Shown here: positions 54,320-61,640 of the stretch, one piece after another
How positions within the stretch are numbered: the stretch's first letter is position 1
Layout of the letters: every line of letters begins with the position of its first letter
Assembly: GCA_010093605.1 (NCBI GenBank)
Contig: MU004195.1
Coordinates: forward strand, 1,379,566 to 1,443,565
DNA from: Lophium mytilinum
Lineage: Eukaryota
Length of the DNA stretch: 64,000 bases
Direction of reading: 5' to 3'
Program-made: the position numbers and the translations under genes
The notes under the pieces: model-generated
Seen by the model: only the letters and a program-made list of their open reading frames with translations
The model's database searches: none
Told to the model about the DNA's origin: nothing

Positions 54320-56308
54320 ATGGCCAGTTTCGTGGACCTACCAGTTGAGCTCGTCGGGGAGATAATCTCATACATTCCCCATCAAGCCGATCGCTGCCAC
54401 CTATCTCGAGTTTGCCGTACTATGAACGCGATAGCGACACCATTCCTCTATCGGACGTATACCAATGATAACCAGAAACATCCGCCTCCATTCACGCCCT
54501 TCCTAAGGACTATTTCACAGCGCCCGGATTTAGCACGTCTTGTGAAGGAAGTCCGCGTTCGACGGTGGTTGACGGAGCGATGCAAGGCGGAGGCTGAACT
54601 CAGCCACGGCCGAGATAGTTCTACAGACCTTGATGTCTTGTTGTTGGATCCGCTTTTTTATGAAGACCAGAAGTTGTTCATAAGCGTGGCAAAGCAAATA
54701 GGCCTCATCGATGTAGACGCTGACGCCGGAGAGTGGGAGATGGATTCTGCAGAGATCAAATACAGTGGATACTTTGGGGCCGATTATTTCGACTTTGATG
54801 AGGGAGGGCAGGGAGCAGCTGAAGCTGGTATAGGAGGCCTCCCTGCGGATGCCATTGAAGAGGGGGCTGTACCAGAGCAAGTCGAGCAAGACGACGACGA
54901 AGAAGACGAAGAAGAAGAAGATGACGAAAATGAAGATGAAGATGAAGACGAAGAAGCAGAAGGAGATGAAAGTGACGAAACCGACGAAACCGACGAAACC
55001 GACGAAACCGACGAAACCGACTCCGACTCCGATTCAGATTGGTCGGCTGGGTATAATTCCCGTCGTCTAGAGCTCTATGCATATAAGGTAGATTTGCCTT
55101 CGGGCGACTGGAATGTTGACGGTACTGCTGAATACAGCGACCCAGATCAGCACAGGCGCCAAATGAGGGCTGCACGATATCTCAGACAGCGATGGGGAGA
55201 AGTGCAGCTGAGACGAGATGCAGATTGGCTGAGAATGCTCTTTACCAGTGTTGAGGATGCGGAACTCGTTCTCTTGCTTGCCCTACTTCCAAACCTCGAA
55301 AAGCTTCAACTGAACGGAATGCCAAATACCCCATTTCTTTGCTGGAAGTCCGTCATTCTAGAGTCATCCTATCCTTTAAGGTGTCTCGAGACTCTCAACC
55401 TCAACGTAGGGTCAATGGGGTGTTCATTAGAGCGCGTCGGCCGCTTATTTACACTTCCCTCGCTCCACACTTTCAACGGTCGAAACGTCTATGGATGGAG
55501 GGGATGGGGCGCTGATGGCTCCTCGTCGAACCTGAAGACCATCAACCTAGACAACTCTTTTCTGACTGATGCAGCTGCAAGAGACCTGATAAACGGTTGC
55601 ACAGGTCTGGAGACATTTGGATTCAGTCACCACAAATACGGTGCACGTTTCACAATCGAAACTGCGCACGACGGGAATTTTCAACCGAGATCTATCATAG
55701 AGATCCTTCAATCACAGCGGCACTCCCTAACCAATCTGAGGATCGAACTGTGGTCCACATCTTTGGGGATTAGGGAAGCACTGTCTCCAACCTTCCATGC
55801 ACCTGACGACGCAAGTGACCTGCTCATGGGCCCCTTGAATGACTTCGAGAAATTGGAGACTTTATGGATAAGCTACGCGGATCTTATGGGCCCAAGTTAT
55901 CTTGAACACAACAACCCAGCTTTATTAGCTCCTTGCCTTTCGGACGTACTACCATCGTCTCTTAACACCCTCAACTTGAGCGGTGTCGTCAAACGTGGCG
56001 TCGATCAATTACTGAGAGTCGCAAATGTTAGCTGGAAGAAGTTTCCCAATCTCAAAGTGGTCAATTTGAGCTTGCTGCCGCCAAAATATGGGGGTTTGAG
56101 CGACTCCGACGTTCATCAGCTTATCTCTGCGTTTGATGCTGCGAATATTGAGTTTTTGTGGTGTTGGTGGCCTGATAAAATCTTCAAAGATCGGACTCTC
56201 AAGAACTGGGGACCTGGCGTCCCGGATTTCACCCAAGCTCAAGTCATGGACTACTTTCTAGATGTCCAGAGACCTGTAATTTCACGTGGCATTGCCCAAG
56301 TGAGGTAG
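54320..56308 (+). CDS. F-box/LRR-like protein with acidic insert, paralog 2
   Basis: ATG at 54320, intronless. FVDLPVELVGEII...LSRVCRTMNAIATPFLY; LRTISQRPDLARLVK; LLLALLPNLEKL. Confidence 0.85.
   Translation: MASFVDLPVELVGEIISYIPHQADRCHLSRVCRTMNAIATPFLYRTYTNDNQKHPPPFTPFLRTISQRPDLARLVKEVRVRRWLTERCKAEAELSHGRDSSTDLDVLLLDPLFYEDQKLFISVAKQIGLIDVDADAGEWEMDSAEIKYSGYFGADYFDFDEGGQGAAEAGIGGLPADAIEEGAVPEQVEQDDDEEDEEEEDDENEDEDEDEEAEGDESDETDETDETDETDETDSDSDSDWSAGYNSRRLELYAYKVDLPSGDWNVDGTAEYSDPDQHRRQMRAARYLRQRWGEVQLRRDADWLRMLFTSVEDAELVLLLALLPNLEKLQLNGMPNTPFLCWKSVILESSYPLRCLETLNLNVGSMGCSLERVGRLFTLPSLHTFNGRNVYGWRGWGADGSSSNLKTINLDNSFLTDAAARDLINGCTGLETFGFSHHKYGARFTIETAHDGNFQPRSIIEILQSQRHSLTNLRIELWSTSLGIREALSPTFHAPDDASDLLMGPLNDFEKLETLWISYADLMGPSYLEHNNPALLAPCLSDVLPSSLNTLNLSGVVKRGVDQLLRVANVSWKKFPNLKVVNLSLLPPKYGGLSDSDVHQLISAFDAANIEFLWCWWPDKIFKDRTLKNWGPGVPDFTQAQVMDYFLDVQRPVISRGIAQVR
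54974..55022 (+). repeat. Coding minisatellite (GACGAAACC) x5 encoding DET repeats
   Basis: GACGAAACC tandem units within a GAA/GAC/GAT-rich acidic tract (54891-55040). Confidence 0.9.
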
Positions 56309-56951
56309 TTGCGAGGTAGTAAAATCGTGTGACCTTAGGAGCTTCGCCAGCAATATCTATACAATAAGAGCCGTCGAGATCTAAGATCACATGTTTAATA
56401 TTTGGAAATATCATAAAACGATGCCGACTTGACCGTCATGAAGAAATTTCAACAACAGACCTACAACCTTGGAAAGAAAGGATATGTCGTGAACTAAAAG
56501 CCGGCCGGTTAGCAGCTTGGAGCTTCTAGGCGCACGGGCCATGCACCAAAGGAAAATTGACCTCTCGTTGAGTCATCGTCGCCATCACAGTCACAGCCTC
56601 GTAGCAGATGCGAACTGTACCAGCGGGAGCAGTGCGCCTAGGCGTCTACACTCATAAGTCGCGCATAGCCACATGAATGGGAGTCACAATCCCGACCGTG
56701 CACTCCCGTAGCGTAGCTGAGCTGAAGTAGGAGCTGTCGGTGTGTATATACTGCTCAAAGTCCAAATAGTACTCACTATCAAATCCGCACTTTCCTTCGA
56801 TTCGTCGGTCCTTCTTTTCTCCGGTGTTGTTATTGTCTTCATCGTTGGAATCACTTGCTTGACCAGGCCGCACAGCTTTATCAGTTACTGTTCTTCAGGA
56901 CCTTTCTTTCCCCCAACCCACCCTCCAGTCCCAATTCGAAAGCTTGCATTT

Positions 56952-59900
56952 ATGGCGGCCGTCGAGAGCGCTCCAGCTCATTTGAGCATTGCTGTGGACT
57001 CCTACGAAACTGCCCTTTGCATTATTCCCCCTGCCGATCTTTGCCACGACTTGGACCGCCTTCGTTCAGTCTACGACAAGCACCATGGGAGATGGCCTCC
57101 CCATATCAACGTTATCTATCCCTTCGTCGACGTCGAAGACCTTCCACATGCGACTCCTTTGATTCGATCTGCCTGGGCCGATGGGCTAGCGGCAGACGAC
57201 CTCCACAAACTCCGCCTCAGCCTCGGACAAGCCGACGTCTTTTCTCAGCCACATAGCAACACCATATTTATTTCTGATGGTGATGACACTCACATCCAAT
57301 CAATATATGCAATTCGAGGTTTAGCCCTGATTGCTCTAGGGCAGGAACCTGGCCCTCTCCATTACCATCTTACTGTTGGCCGGAGCGAAACCCAAGATAC
57401 CGCTTCTCGAGATTTCTTGCTTGAAAAGGCCAAATTGCTTCCTCCGATTGCATGGACGGTACAAGAGCTAGCTATACTTGTTCGTGAGCGGACGTATAAA
57501 GATGGCATCGTGTCAAACCGAATGAAGGTCTGGGGTACTATCCCGTTACCTTCCAGCCACACTATTCTTTCGAAGGAAGAACTATCAGACGAGGAAGAAC
57601 TGCAGGCTGAGACCGTAGAGAGTACCACCACAAGTAAGGCGGTTCAGCCAGGATCTACGTACCGCTTCTCTTCGGAGAGCACTTCGTGGATACTTTACGA
57701 ATCATCCATCTCGCCAGAAAGCCAAGAGGATATGCCAACGTCCATACGAATCTCGAGCTACAACGTACTAGTCGATTCCATGCATCCGCCCCCACGGGAA
57801 AGATACCCGCTTCTTGTCGAGACTCTGCTCTCCGCCTCCGCCCAGGCTGACATCTTAGTTTTACAAGAAGTAACGGATGATTTTCTTTCTCACCTTTTGA
57901 AGATCGAAGAGATCCGAGAATGCTACCCTTACACCACCCACGGACCGGCTCAGCAAGCCGACATTGGTCCCATGTCAAGCCTCCGGAACATCGTCGTATT
58001 GAGCCGCTGGGCCTTTGGCTGGGAATACGTTCCCTTTCAGAGACGACACAAAGGGTCGGCCGTCCTGAAATTCGATAGCATTGGACTCAGGAAAGGATCC
58101 GACTTTTACCCTCTGGTCATTGCCGGCGTCCATCTAACCTGTGGACTCACCGACGGATCTGTCGCTGCGAAGAGGTCACAAGTCCAAACTACGATATCCC
58201 ACCTTTCCCGCACCTATACAAAGAGCCCATGTATCATTGCTGGTGATTTCAACATTTCCACCTCGGAGTACACAATCAATGAAGCCTGCAAGAACCACAA
58301 GATATCTCCCAACACCGAAACCGGAATCCGTTCTCTGGAGGCTATCTTCTCTGACGCAGATTTTTCCGATTCATGGACCGTTGCACGCGTTGAATTAGGA
58401 GAAGCTACGGACAGATATACAGGCAAGGTGCCTCATGATGTATTTGAGGGTGAAGAAGGAGCGACATTCGACCCAACGGAAAACCACCTTGCTGCAGAAA
58501 CATCTGGGAGCCCAAGCAATCGACCGCAAAGATACGACAGGATCTTTCTTAAGGGCCAAGAGTCCTGGCACGTGTGTTCCTTCAACATGTTCGGTCTGCC
58601 TGATGACGAAGACGAGGTGGGACTCTGTGCCAGTGATCACTGGGGCGTTCGTGCCACTTTCAAGACGTCCGCGAGCAATGAAAATCCCAAACCGGCAGTG
58701 GACCTTCATGAATTAGGCCCAGTGTCAGTATCGAGGACCCCATCTGCTATTCTCAGCAATGAATCACTTCTTGCTTGTCTCCAATCCTCACACATGGCTC
58801 CTACGCAAAGTGAAATCAATCAGCGAGAGGACGTGTTCGCCTTGCTAGAAACCATTATGAATACTCGTTCAGACCTTCCATTTATTCTCGTTCCCGTTGG
58901 GTCCTACGGACTTGGAGTATGGACTACATCTTCAGACATTGATTGCATGTTTCTTGGGCAGATCAGCTCGAAGACGTTCTTCGCTCTTGCACGCCAGAGG
59001 ATTCGGAAAGCATCGGATCTAGGTGTTCGGCTCTTGAGAAAGGTCGATGCGAAGACTGGCACTATGCTAGAAATTGATGTCAGAGGCGTACGAATGGACA
59101 TACAGTACTGCCCTGCTGCGAGGATTGTCGAAAGGTATGTATACTTGCCCACCTTTAATATTTTAAATTACAAAAGTTAACCCCCACAAAGCTGGCCTGA
59201 GTCCATCCGGCGACCTCCTTCCGATCCTATCTTCAGTCTAGCCATGCAGTCACTTCGAAAGCTCAAGGCGTTCCGAGACCAAGAATATCTCCAGCGCACG
59301 ATACCTGATCTCGCTGCCTTCCGAACTGCGTACAGATGCATTAAGCTCTGGGCTCAGCAACGCGGTATCTATTCGGCCAAGTTTGGGTACTTCGGTGGTA
59401 TCCATATCACCCTAATGCTATCTCGAGTCTGCAAACTCGTTTCCGTTCTGCGCGGTACAGCTGGGATTACTGCCGCAGATATCGCCAGCGTTTTCTTCCA
59501 TCACTATGCCGAATTCGACTGGAAGTCCGACATGGTGTTTGACCCTTTCTTCGACAAACAAGTACCAAAATATTCACGACTTGCTAGAGAACCTATGGTT
59601 GTCCTTGGATTCCACACTCCTAACTTTAACACTGCAAACACTGCATCTGTACCATCAGTCAATACGTTGGTCGAAGAGTTCAAACGCGCCGATTCCAAGC
59701 TGTCGGAAGAGAGCATGACCTGGTCCAAGTTTCTGGGAGGCAACGTTGGAGACAACGCCAATGCGGTAGAATCTCACCCAGGCGCACGGGACTTTCTCCA
59801 CACATATGACAGCTATATCAAGATTGGCGTCAATTACTGGGGATCGTCTCTGAAGAAAGGCAGCGGGCTGGTTGGTTGGCTCGAGTCCAAGTGCGTGCTA

Positions 59901-60704
59901 CTTCTTGTCGGTATGTAGCATAATCAGAGAACCGATCCCCTGAGCCTCCTCCGTTGCTAACGCCGTATAGATCTCAACAGGAAACTCCCGCACATCCATG
60001 CCCGCATCTGGCCCGCCAGATTCTCAGCCCCCGATGCTGGAGACGCAACATCCGACTACGAAGGCTGCTATCTAATCGGCCTCACCAAAGCCAAGGATGT
60101 CGACTCAAACACTAAGATCGACCATAACGCATCAAAAGAAGCCCTGAAATCAACCCTCGACCGCTTCGAAGAACAAATTCGAAGCGATGACCGCTACTTC
60201 GACCCCAACTCCTCCTGGGTCCAAGTCACCCACGTCAAAAAATCCGCCCTCGGCGACCTCGCACTCGACACCCGCGAATGGGGCGTCTACGCCGCCGACG
60301 ACGACGCGGACAGCGACTCTGAAGACGAAGAACTCGATTCTGAGGATGACCTTCCTGCCGAGATGGCTGCGACTTCGCTGCAGGAGCCGCGCATCACGCC
60401 TGTCGCGGCGGCGAAGCTACGGCCGGCGGCTGATATCCTGTCACGGCTGCGTTGGGATCCTAATTTGGACTCGCAGGACTATATCGTGGGTTATGAGGAT
60501 CGGTTCCTGGGAGCGAAGGAGATTGCGCTAGAGCGGTGGAAGACGGAGCAGACGGATGATGAGTTCATTCCGCAGCATCGAATTCTGTACTTCAAGCGGA
60601 GGAGTGATGGAGTGATTGTTTGGGATCGCAAGATGCGGGTTGATTTGATGTTTGGGAGCGGGGCTAGTGGTGTTGGTGTGGGAGAGGTGAAGGAGGAAGA
60701 GTAG
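56952..60704 (+). CDS. Multidomain RNA end-processing/repair protein: 2H phosphoesterase + EEP + poly(A) polymerase-like nucleotidyltransferase + PAP central + MJ1316/DUF504, 1211 aa
   Basis: Exons 56952-59134, 59192-59910, 59971-60704. 2H: WPPHINVIYPF, YHLTVG. EEP: SYNVL, LQEV, GVHLT, AGDFN, RYDRIF, SDHWG. NTase: GSYGLGVWTTSSDIDC, MDIQY. PAP central: IKLWAQQRGIYSAKFGYFGG. MJ1316: RLRWDP...VGYEDRF...IPQHRILYF...WDR. Confidence 0.9.
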
Positions 60705-60776
60705 AGCAGATTAGTAGGGAAAAAAGAGTAGTCTGGGAGTATATTGCATCCAGCACCACAAAGACCCGGCCTTGTA

Positions 60777-61640
60777 TCACTCGCAGGGTAGAGTGGTCTG
60801 CGACATAATTTCCTTACCTAAGGGCGATACTACCTCGACGATCTTGTTTCGCCAAATTGCACGATGTCCGGTCCTCGCTCGGATGTCGCACTCTTGGAGG
60901 CCTCTCAACTGCCGCAAAGGCTCCAATAGAAGGTCTTGCCAAGTCCAGACGTAGACTTGGAGCGCTAATCTTAGTCGCCGAAGCCCCTTCATCGTCATGA
61001 TAGCTTTGCACATTGGGTACCAATGCCGCGGTAGATACTCTTCATACTTGGCATACTCTATGCTGGTGGTTGGTGGACCGAAAGACCAGCATGTTTGGAG
61101 GCTCGTTATAACGTCGAGGCGCTGGGGGGGAACAGCCTGCGCAAAAAATGTGAAGGAAATACAGGAGTCAAAGTCGAAAGTGGGTATGGAGTAGAGTAAA
61201 TCAACTGCTTCAGTGTAGACCTGTCGACATGTTTGTAGAAGTGCCATCTGTGCTATTGAAGCCCCCCGCAAAAGCACGTTGAACGGCTCAGGGAGCGCGT
61301 AGTACGGACGCAGATCGGATGGCATAATACATAAGCGGTCGATGTCGGTGGTCCCTGCAGGTTCTTCAATCAGGCATCGTTTGTGTGCGAGGCGCTTGCA
61401 CGCCAGGCGTTTGCGCAGGGAATGTGGATGATGTCGCTTGGAGAACCCAGAACGTAGCCGAATATTATAAGTCTGAGTTCAACAGGGAGGCGCGCAAGGA
61501 GCGAGCACGTCTGTGGTCTATGCTTAGGTCTTCGCCTGGAGAATAGGCTTCTTGGTTCTGGTAGTTTGGATAGATCGCGACGTCGTGAGGACCGCCTTGG
61601 AGGAGCTTATTTCTCGAAGTACTTTTGGCACTGCTCATCT
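60777..61640 (-). pseudogene. Disrupted fungal gene with F-box-like N-terminus (DUF7730-like)
   Basis: PQTCSLLARLPVELRLIIFGYVLG...IIHI is in a different frame from LRKRL...ALLQTCRQVYTEAVDLLYS...FDF (frameshift near 61419); in-frame TAA at 61609-61607 upstream. Confidence 0.65.

Follow-up and report, generated by a model that had tools for sequence, protein, structure and literature searches.

The window analysed here is a stretch of 64,000 nucleotides (nt) of the Lophium mytilinum assembly GCA_010093605.1 (contig MU004195.1, positions 1,379,566 to 1,443,565 of the forward strand), and all positions below are counted from its first letter unless another record is named. It consists of eukaryotic, fungal-type DNA with a G+C content of about 52%. 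At 56952..60704 lies a real, expressed fungal gene that encodes one protein, in which a 2H phosphoesterase domain, an endonuclease/exonuclease/phosphatase (EEP) domain, a poly(A) polymerase (PAP) module and an MJ1316 domain follow one another in the order 2H-EEP-PAP-MJ1316.

The first in-frame ATG of the gene is at 56952, and the terminal stop, which is the sole stop of the joined frame, ends at 60704. The joined coding sequence of 3636 nt (exons 1 to 3 in Table 1) is translated into 1211 amino acids (aa), as the original prediction, made from the letters of the DNA, had proposed. Both introns are short and have fungal consensus ends. Because both carry in-frame stops, the stop-to-stop frames of the plus strand fall into three pieces (56721-59180, 59181-59918 and 59961-60704), which confirms the earlier remark that the supplied list of open reading frames (ORFs) split the gene into three. 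A transcript contig of 5086 nt from the public run X1 matched positions 56700-60900 with 0 mismatches and contained exactly two skips, of 57 and 60 nt, both GT..AG and both at the predicted intron places. Run X1 was the sole public run with this stretch (0.96 of the sampled words were present), and its kind was guessed to be RNA, not being on record. Since the contig is without the introns, it is read as the cDNA of a single mRNA joining all three exons, so that the transcript check proposed for the two introns came out in favour of one gene. The contig extends 896 nt beyond 60900 into the convergent neighbour, so that its 3' part may merge two transcripts; moreover, contigs cannot give transcript ends. 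The exon junctions (aa 727/728 and 967/968) were gapless against 55 full-length relatives. Separate genes, considered as another explanation of the three frames, are ruled out by the spliced contig that joins the three exons and by the gapless relatives at both junctions.

Pfam was run on the three exon translations, and the matches to 2H (80.7 bits against a cut-off of 27), EEP (37.1 against 24.5), PAP_central (62.5 against 27.1) and MJ1316 (74.8 against 26.3) all passed (accessions and E-values in Table 1); the PAP central domain and the C-terminal MJ1316 domain had both been named in the original prediction. The nucleotidyltransferase families stayed under their cut-offs (PF01909, E = 0.0058, 17.4 bits against 21; PF20750, E = 0.0082, 16.5 bits against 27). 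An NCBIfam scan of the exon translations gave nothing near the cut-offs, and no ligase or kinase family was seen in any exon piece at E up to 1 in Pfam or NCBIfam. The catalytic motifs were all found as first described: PHIN at residue 50 and YHLT at 138 for 2H; SYN at 269-271, QE at 305-306, H394, GDFN at 431-434, D529 and SDH at 561-563 for EEP; and GS at 650-651 and DID at 662-664, with D716 as the third carboxylate, for the nucleotidyltransferase.

Table 1. Features of the gene at 56952..60704 and of the related bacterial gene pair
Feature	Position	Strand	Residues and remarks
Exon 1	56952..59134	+	aa 1-727 and 2 nt of codon 728; 2H, linker, EEP and first half of nucleotidyltransferase; from first in-frame ATG and open frame; 0 mismatches to transcript contig
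Intron 1	59135..59191	+	57 nt, GTATGT...AAAG; in-frame TAA; interrupts nucleotidyltransferase domain
Exon 2	59192..59910	+	aa 728-968 (first nt of codon 968); end of nucleotidyltransferase, PAP central domain, start of RNA-binding-domain-like part
Intron 2	59911..59970	+	60 nt, GTATGT...GCTAAC...TATAG; in-frame TAG straight away
Exon 3	59971..60704	+	aa 968-1211 and stop; RNA-binding-domain-like part, acidic linker, MJ1316 domain
2H phosphoesterase domain	57027..57491	+	aa 26-180; PF13563, 1.5e-22; motifs H51-I-N53-V-I-Y56 and H139-L-T141-V-G-R144
EEP domain	57756..58640	+	aa 269-563; PF03372, 3.6e-9; residues N271, E306, H394, D432, N434, D529, D562, H563
Pol-beta-type nucleotidyltransferase (palm) of PAP module	58737..59134	+	aa 596-727, continuing into exon 2; residues G650, S651, D662, D664, D716
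PAP central domain	59319..59726	+	aa 771-906; PF04928, 4.8e-17
PAP RNA-binding-domain-like part	59811..60248	+	about aa 935-1060, approximate; intron 2 inside span
MJ1316 domain	60420..60629	+	aa 1118-1187; PF04457, 8.9e-21; predicted RNA cyclic-end recognition module
Nonomuraea gerenzanensis two-gene pair	L001 6213-11089 = NZ_LT559118.1 7311212-7316088		ligase-kinase, then MJ1316-EEP-2H-PAP

A word-indexed search with exon 1 gave 391 relatives, and among the 120 listed, 55 were at least 1150 aa long; these 55 came from Dothideomycetes, Eurotiomycetes, Sordariomycetes and Geoglossomycetes. The nearest relative among the matches listed was that of Mytilinidion resinicola (P0001, a truncated model of 972 aa), with 84% identity over exon 1. 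Pfam scans covered 40 of the 55 full-length relatives (15 were left out), and 2H, EEP, PAP_central and MJ1316 were present together in all 40. Residue conservation was then read from an aligned set made up of the spliced window protein and the 55 relatives (n = 56). Both 2H histidines were invariant, as were N53, Y56 and T141 (56/56 each). The EEP residues in Table 1 were likewise found in 56/56, save D432 (55/56), and the five polymerase residues in 56/56. The invariance of the catalytic residues of three enzymes speaks for selection on each of the three activities. Along the protein, conservation was highest in the MJ1316 domain.

The orthologs in Pezizomycotina (about 1200 aa) share domain order, length and catalytic residues with the window protein at about 50% identity over the full length, and examples such as P0108 of Aspergillus flavus and P0007 of Clohesyomyces aquaticus showed no substantive difference from it. 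They are annotated as 'polynucleotide adenylyltransferase', 'DUF455 domain protein' or 'poly(A) polymerase pla1'. The window gene is thus an ordinary ortholog of a conserved Pezizomycotina gene, whose architecture is already in many annotated fungal proteomes. Exhaustive phmmer yielded 1014 representatives with E no greater than 1e-3 and 161 with E no greater than 1e-30; of 10 lower-ranked representatives that were looked up, 5 had an organism name, all fungal. Five shorter, fungal-looking relatives of 820-960 aa (P0236, P0239, P0264, P0257 and P0229) were without the N-terminal 2H domain and kept the PAP part and MJ1316. An EEP match was seen in only two of the five (P0236 and P0264), and P0239 had ASH in place of the SDH of the family. 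These 820-960-aa relatives may represent either truncated gene calls or a branch of paralogs that is partly inactivated.

The polymerase part was compared with known enzymes by sequence and by structure. PDB sequence searches with exon 1 alone and with exon 3 alone gave nothing significant, and a PDB sequence search returned PAP gamma (1.3e-12), together with yeast Pap1 and S. pombe Pla1. A profile of the 55 full-length orthologs matched PAP gamma at 1.1e-40, and also PAP alpha, over PAP residues 42-456. Among the 40 orthologs scanned with Pfam, PF01909 was found in 35 and PF20750 in 32. An AlphaFold2 model of the A. flavus ortholog P0108 (pLDDT 79.1, pTM 0.72) superposed on bovine PAP (1f5a) with TM 0.80, normalised by the 463-residue target, and showed strands and helices at 917-1041. 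Despite the Pfam matches under cut-off, the nucleotidyltransferase assignment is secure at the level of profile and model, because of the ortholog profile match to PAP gamma and the superposition on bovine PAP.

Given this superposition over the 463-residue bovine enzyme, the polymerase part, as modelled, comprises an entire PAP of the canonical type, together with an RNA-binding-domain-like part. The PAP RNA-binding domain family PF04926 was not detected by Pfam in the window protein or in any of the 40 orthologs (0/40). The five domains named in the original prediction were all present, and the count missed a putative sixth, the RNA-binding-domain-like module between PAP_central and MJ1316. 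The nucleotidyltransferase, central and RNA-binding-type domains superpose on those of canonical PAPs (bovine PAP alpha 1f5a, human PAP gamma 4lt6, yeast Pap1 and S. pombe Pla1), and the GS...DxD...D triad, G650 to D716 in the window protein, is common to them. The identity to these enzymes is about 20%, and the window PAP module differs from them in being embedded between EEP and MJ1316. To our knowledge, no cleavage or polyadenylation factor context exists for it.

The EEP domain of the window protein (aa 255-580) was also modelled with AlphaFold2 (pLDDT 85.5, pTM 0.88), and 38 EEP entries scored Z 15.8 or more against the model. The best fold match was TDP2 (VIA-align Z 26.1, root-mean-square deviation 2.6 A over 241 residues; Foldseek 3.8e-16), followed by neutral sphingomyelinase (Z 25.2), Nocturnin (22.9), CNOT6L (22.8), PDE12 (21.1), Exonuclease III (21.0) and ANGEL2 (6rw0, 21.0). 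TDP2 was the top match by three methods (sequence profile, Foldseek and VIA-align), tied within 1 Z unit with neutral sphingomyelinase and ahead of Nocturnin, CNOT6L and ANGEL2 by 3 to 5 Z units. Its sequence E-values, from 0.27 to 0.96, were not significant; it was the sole EEP match of the ortholog profile (0.27), the identity to the window EEP is 18 to 22%, and the sole sequence-matched part is the C-terminal region with the D-R-I and SDHW motifs. Nocturnin and ANGEL2 share the fold and have the chemistry that would be needed for the EEP step proposed below, although they are more distant than TDP2 by the same 3 to 5 Z units and are without a sequence-level match. Nocturnin has 2'-phosphatase activity. 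ANGEL2, according to the title of entry 6rw0, is an EEP enzyme that dephosphorylates 2',3'-cyclic ends. The general statement in the original prediction that EEP enzymes remove terminal phosphates is too simple for this domain, whose fold is closest to the phosphodiesterase TDP2 and to neutral sphingomyelinase.

In the 2H domain, the first motif is H-x-N, with the N invariant in 56/56, whereas the canonical form is H-x-T/S; the second motif is H139-L-T141. With the profile of the 55 orthologs, the only 2H match in the PDB was YjcG of B. subtilis (2d4g, 5.2e-6). PMC4201822 gives the extended motifs HxTxxF and HxTxxR for ThpR, which converts RNA>p to RNA-2'p, and the HxNxxY and HxTxxR motifs of the window protein resemble them. 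Both bacterial 2H RNA 2',3'-cyclic phosphodiesterases, ThpR and YjcG, resemble the window protein in the +5 positions, which hold an aromatic residue in motif 1 and R in motif 2; they differ from it in motif 1, which is H-x-T in ThpR and YjcG and H-x-N with an invariant N in the fungal family. A separate observation concerns position +5 of motif 2 (aa 144; codon 141 region, 57372-57374), which is R in the window protein, in Mytilinidion and in the bacterial homolog described below, and Q in the other 55 aligned fungal orthologs. In E. coli ThpR, the R at this position contacts the phosphate.

According to a language-model look-up, Actinomycetota and Rotifera may have clusters of these families as well. 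A scan of prokaryote genomes with the fungal motifs gave 45 pattern matches, with 0 confirmed. In tblastn against PLSDB, the EEP and MJ1316 parts matched adjacent places in an 11.85-Mb record of Nonomuraea gerenzanensis, and MJ1316 alone matched Embleya, a Streptomyces plasmid and a Calothrix thpR gene. An atlas search with the MJ1316 part, from which EEP and PAP clusters were excluded, returned only stand-alone MJ1316 clusters. The N. gerenzanensis ORF (P0390, L001 8168-11089, 972-973 aa) has the order MJ1316-EEP-2H-PAP_central, and BLASTP aligned the window protein with it over EEP (4e-15), 2H (1e-7), PAP central (2e-8) and MJ1316 (8e-11, 34% identity). It has a WPPH-V-N motif, which is the odd WPPH-x-N form, and an HLT motif, and its EEP and GS/DxD/D residues are those of the window protein; its nucleotidyltransferase, too, has the canonical PAPs of eukaryotes as its closest relatives. 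The window protein is about 240 aa longer than the bacterial one, to which the fungal EEP aligns with large gaps around aa 440-499. Because the order is MJ1316-EEP-2H-PAP in the bacterial proteins and 2H-EEP-PAP-MJ1316 in the window, we file the window protein, from the sequence comparison, as a putative rearranged eukaryotic branch of an MJ1316/EEP/2H/PAP RNA-repair fusion family.

Two-domain proteins were seen on bacterial plasmids. A 302-aa ORF of the Streptomyces sp. NBC_01361 plasmid NZ_CP109590.1 (L002 9013-9921), where no gene is listed in the PLSDB table, consists of MJ1316 (8.6e-16) fused to 2H (1.8e-31), and a Calothrix plasmid gene, thpR_2, has an MJ1316 match inside. As far as their domains can be read, such 2H-MJ1316 proteins are minimal reader-plus-phosphodiesterase forms.

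Directly upstream of the Nonomuraea gene lies a gene for an RNA ligase (PF09414, 2.8e-34) fused to a P-loop kinase (PF13671, 3.8e-21), the TGA of which overlaps the ATG of the repair gene (ATGA) behind a GGAG. The ligase-kinase protein had no match in the PDB. Scanning species-representative prokaryote genomes with the Nonomuraea protein gave at least 553 confirmed stretches, and the best 80 of these gave 73 loci in ten actinomycete genera (L003-L075). A ligase-kinase homolog was found upstream on the same strand in 73/73 loci and ended within 150 nt of the repair gene in 65/73; in the other 8 loci, the ligase part alone passed E 1e-5 in 6, and the repair match itself was partial in 2. The 11 other ORFs that flank the Nonomuraea pair were shared in 0/73 loci, which argues against plain synteny. 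Since the pair occurs in all of these loci and no other flanking gene is shared, the ligase-kinase gene and the repair gene behave as a two-gene cassette. In the NCBI records, the bacterial proteins are named 'RNA repair domain-containing protein' or 'poly(A) polymerase', and the partner is named 'RNA ligase family protein'. Among the matches listed in the literature search, no paper was found on this cassette. A ligase-kinase homolog was not seen in the 64-kb fungal window, where no tblastn match was better than E 2.7.

What was observed is a single spliced transcript, the set of domains, catalytic residues that are intact and invariant, the folds and the bacterial ligase-kinase linkage. From these we consider it rather likely that the gene product is a multifunctional enzyme of the MJ1316/EEP/2H/PAP family, which would repair RNA 3' ends in a four-step order. 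The C-terminal MJ1316 domain would first dock an RNA end bearing a 2',3'-cyclic phosphate. The 2H domain would then open the cyclic phosphate to a phosphomonoester, most likely a 2'-phosphate as ThpR does, and the Mg-dependent EEP domain would take off this phosphate and leave a 2',3'-diol. Finally, the canonical-type PAP module would extend the healed 3'-OH with untemplated nucleotides, probably A. Every chemical step in this order, the substrate, the nucleotide added and the fate of the RNA (sealed, stabilised or degraded) are what we infer. The role in RNA-end repair is supported because the actinomycete homologs sit behind an RNA ligase-kinase gene in every one of the 73 loci. The repair role put forward in the original prediction thus gained support from the bacterial context, whereas tailing as the end point remained a proposal. 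Its description of the pathway as self-contained and ligase-free went beyond the data, since the sole contextual evidence ties the family to a ligase and a 5' kinase.

Several points weigh against the proposed repair order. The N in place of T/S in the first 2H motif may signal an altered 2H chemistry, as far as the motif can be read from sequence. In the models, the nearest structural relatives of the EEP domain appear to be TDP2 (5'-tyrosyl phosphodiesterase) and sphingomyelinase and not RNA-end phosphatases, by a gap that is itself modest (only 3 to 5 Z units). Cyclic-end sensing by MJ1316, which the original prediction had likewise called predicted, is still a prediction, its basis being the Pfam name and one passage in PMC6514570. 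The bacterial context points to sealing by a ligase, and the 73 loci from which it is known are the best tblastn matches to one Nonomuraea query, all from Actinomycetes and hence related. A literature search found no biochemical or genetic study on any member of the family, in agreement with the earlier statement that no biochemical characterisation was known. Fusions of this kind are most likely those that Burroughs and Aravind reportedly described in 2016.

A wider form of the proposal is possible but doubtful. According to it, the protein would answer RNA damage in filamentous ascomycetes as a heal-and-tail branch that stands alone and needs no ligase, being a reshuffled eukaryotic descendant or the donor of the bacterial and viral MJ1316-EEP-2H-PAP repair gene. 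Cyclic-phosphate ends left by ribotoxins or stress nucleases would be turned into adenylated ends, which would decide between rescue and destruction of the RNA fragment, and the EEP domain, with its likeness to TDP2, would represent a novel type of RNA 2'/3'-phosphatase. Ribotoxin attack as the trigger, the example given in the original prediction, is speculative.

The same enzymology could instead be the healing arm of a heal-and-seal pathway, in which the protein prepares 3' ends and restores lost nucleotides for a separate RNA ligase, Trl1 or another. The ligase-kinase gene directly upstream in 73/73 actinomycete loci, within 150 nt in 65/73 and with the ATGA overlap in Nonomuraea, speaks for this reading, and fungi do have Trl1, a ligase-kinase-2H enzyme. 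The enzyme set of Trl1 (ligase, kinase and 2H) matches the bacterial cassette as a whole, and the 2H cyclic phosphodiesterase (CPD) domain of this fungal and plant tRNA ligase heals 2',3'-cyclic phosphate ends, as we propose for the window 2H domain. In contrast to Trl1, however, the window protein is without ligase and kinase and has EEP, the PAP module and MJ1316, and its 2H domain belongs to PF13563 and not to the Trl1 CPD family. The fungal protein has neither a ligase nor a kinase fused to it or adjacent to it within the window, a processive canonical-type PAP with an RNA-binding-domain-like part suits tailing better than gap filling, and Trl1 already has a 2H healing domain of its own. 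Taken together, we regard a healing arm for a separate ligase as rather unlikely.

A role outside damage repair, in the maturation or turnover of the 3' ends of one particular class of stable RNA or mRNA, would combine USB1-like trimming by 2H and deadenylase-like trimming by EEP with a balancing polymerase. USB1 is a 2H exonuclease. The 2H and EEP superfamilies both include 3' exonucleases, the window EEP is clearly related in fold to CNOT6L (Z 22.8) and PDE12 (Z 21.1), and a single ortholog conserved across Pezizomycotina is what would be expected of a housekeeping factor. We nevertheless hold such a role to be improbable: the window 2H domain falls in PF13563 with no USB1 (HVSL) match at E up to 1, the EEP domain is nearer TDP2 than the CCR4 family, and the bacterial partner is a ligase-kinase, a repair signature.

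Still less probable is an action of the TDP2-like EEP domain on 5' ends, where it would remove a covalent 5' adduct while 2H and PAP treat the 3' end, giving a two-ended RNA clean-up that is perhaps directed against viral RNA. TDP2 did come first by profile (E 0.27, not significant), Foldseek (3.8e-16) and VIA-align (Z 26.1), and the title of entry 4puq states that TDP2 takes RNA/DNA 5' ends, but it ties with neutral sphingomyelinase within 1 Z unit at an identity of 18 to 22%, a common fold is no proof of a common substrate, and the bacterial partner already provides a 5' kinase for 5'-OH ends. Equally improbable is a nucleotide-signal enzyme, with an OAS-like transferase making 2'-5' oligoadenylates (2-5A) and with 2H and EEP resetting the signal (compare OAS, AKAP7/NS2 and PDE12): 2H and EEP (PDE12, a fold relative of the window EEP at Z 21.1) are the two families that degrade 2-5A in mammals, as PMC8406329 states, but the transferase is canonical-PAP-like over all three PAP domains (1.1e-40, TM 0.80), no OAS chain was among the 24 profile-matched sequences or among the fold matches listed, the bacterial ligase-kinase operon and the RNA-end reader MJ1316 suit polymer ends and not small molecules, and a synthase and its degraders in one chain are hard to rationalise.

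The RNA 3'-end repair reading draws its interest from the combination of a cyclic phosphodiesterase, a second phosphoesterase, a complete eukaryote-type PAP and a predicted end reader in a single polypeptide, which numerous filamentous fungi and numerous actinomycetes have kept. If it is true, a 3'-end repair-and-tailing route would be defined in eukaryotes, MJ1316 would receive its first tested function, and the TDP2-like EEP fold would gain a new activity. Experimental work, both genetic and biochemical, could start in a simple way from the two-gene cassette of the bacteria. What the window gene itself contributes is a gene model that has been verified, an EEP domain resembling TDP2, an HxN motif without exceptions, a PAP module that is complete as modelled and a link to ligase-kinase genes, and with these a sharper, testable hypothesis.

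The gene upstream of the PAP-fusion gene (54320-56305, plus strand) encodes a protein with F-box (6.6e-8) and leucine-rich-repeat (2.4e-13) domains, in which a long acidic stretch contains repeated TDE and SDSD units. The convergent gene downstream (60780-61478, minus strand) encodes a DUF7730 protein (3.8e-20). The 3' ends of the PAP-fusion gene and of the DUF7730 gene may overlap, because the X1 contig crosses the latter over the 896 nt that it runs past 60900. Elsewhere in the window, the segment 34001-36000 had the highest G+C content (0.614, compared with about 0.52), with strong GC-skew swings on both sides.

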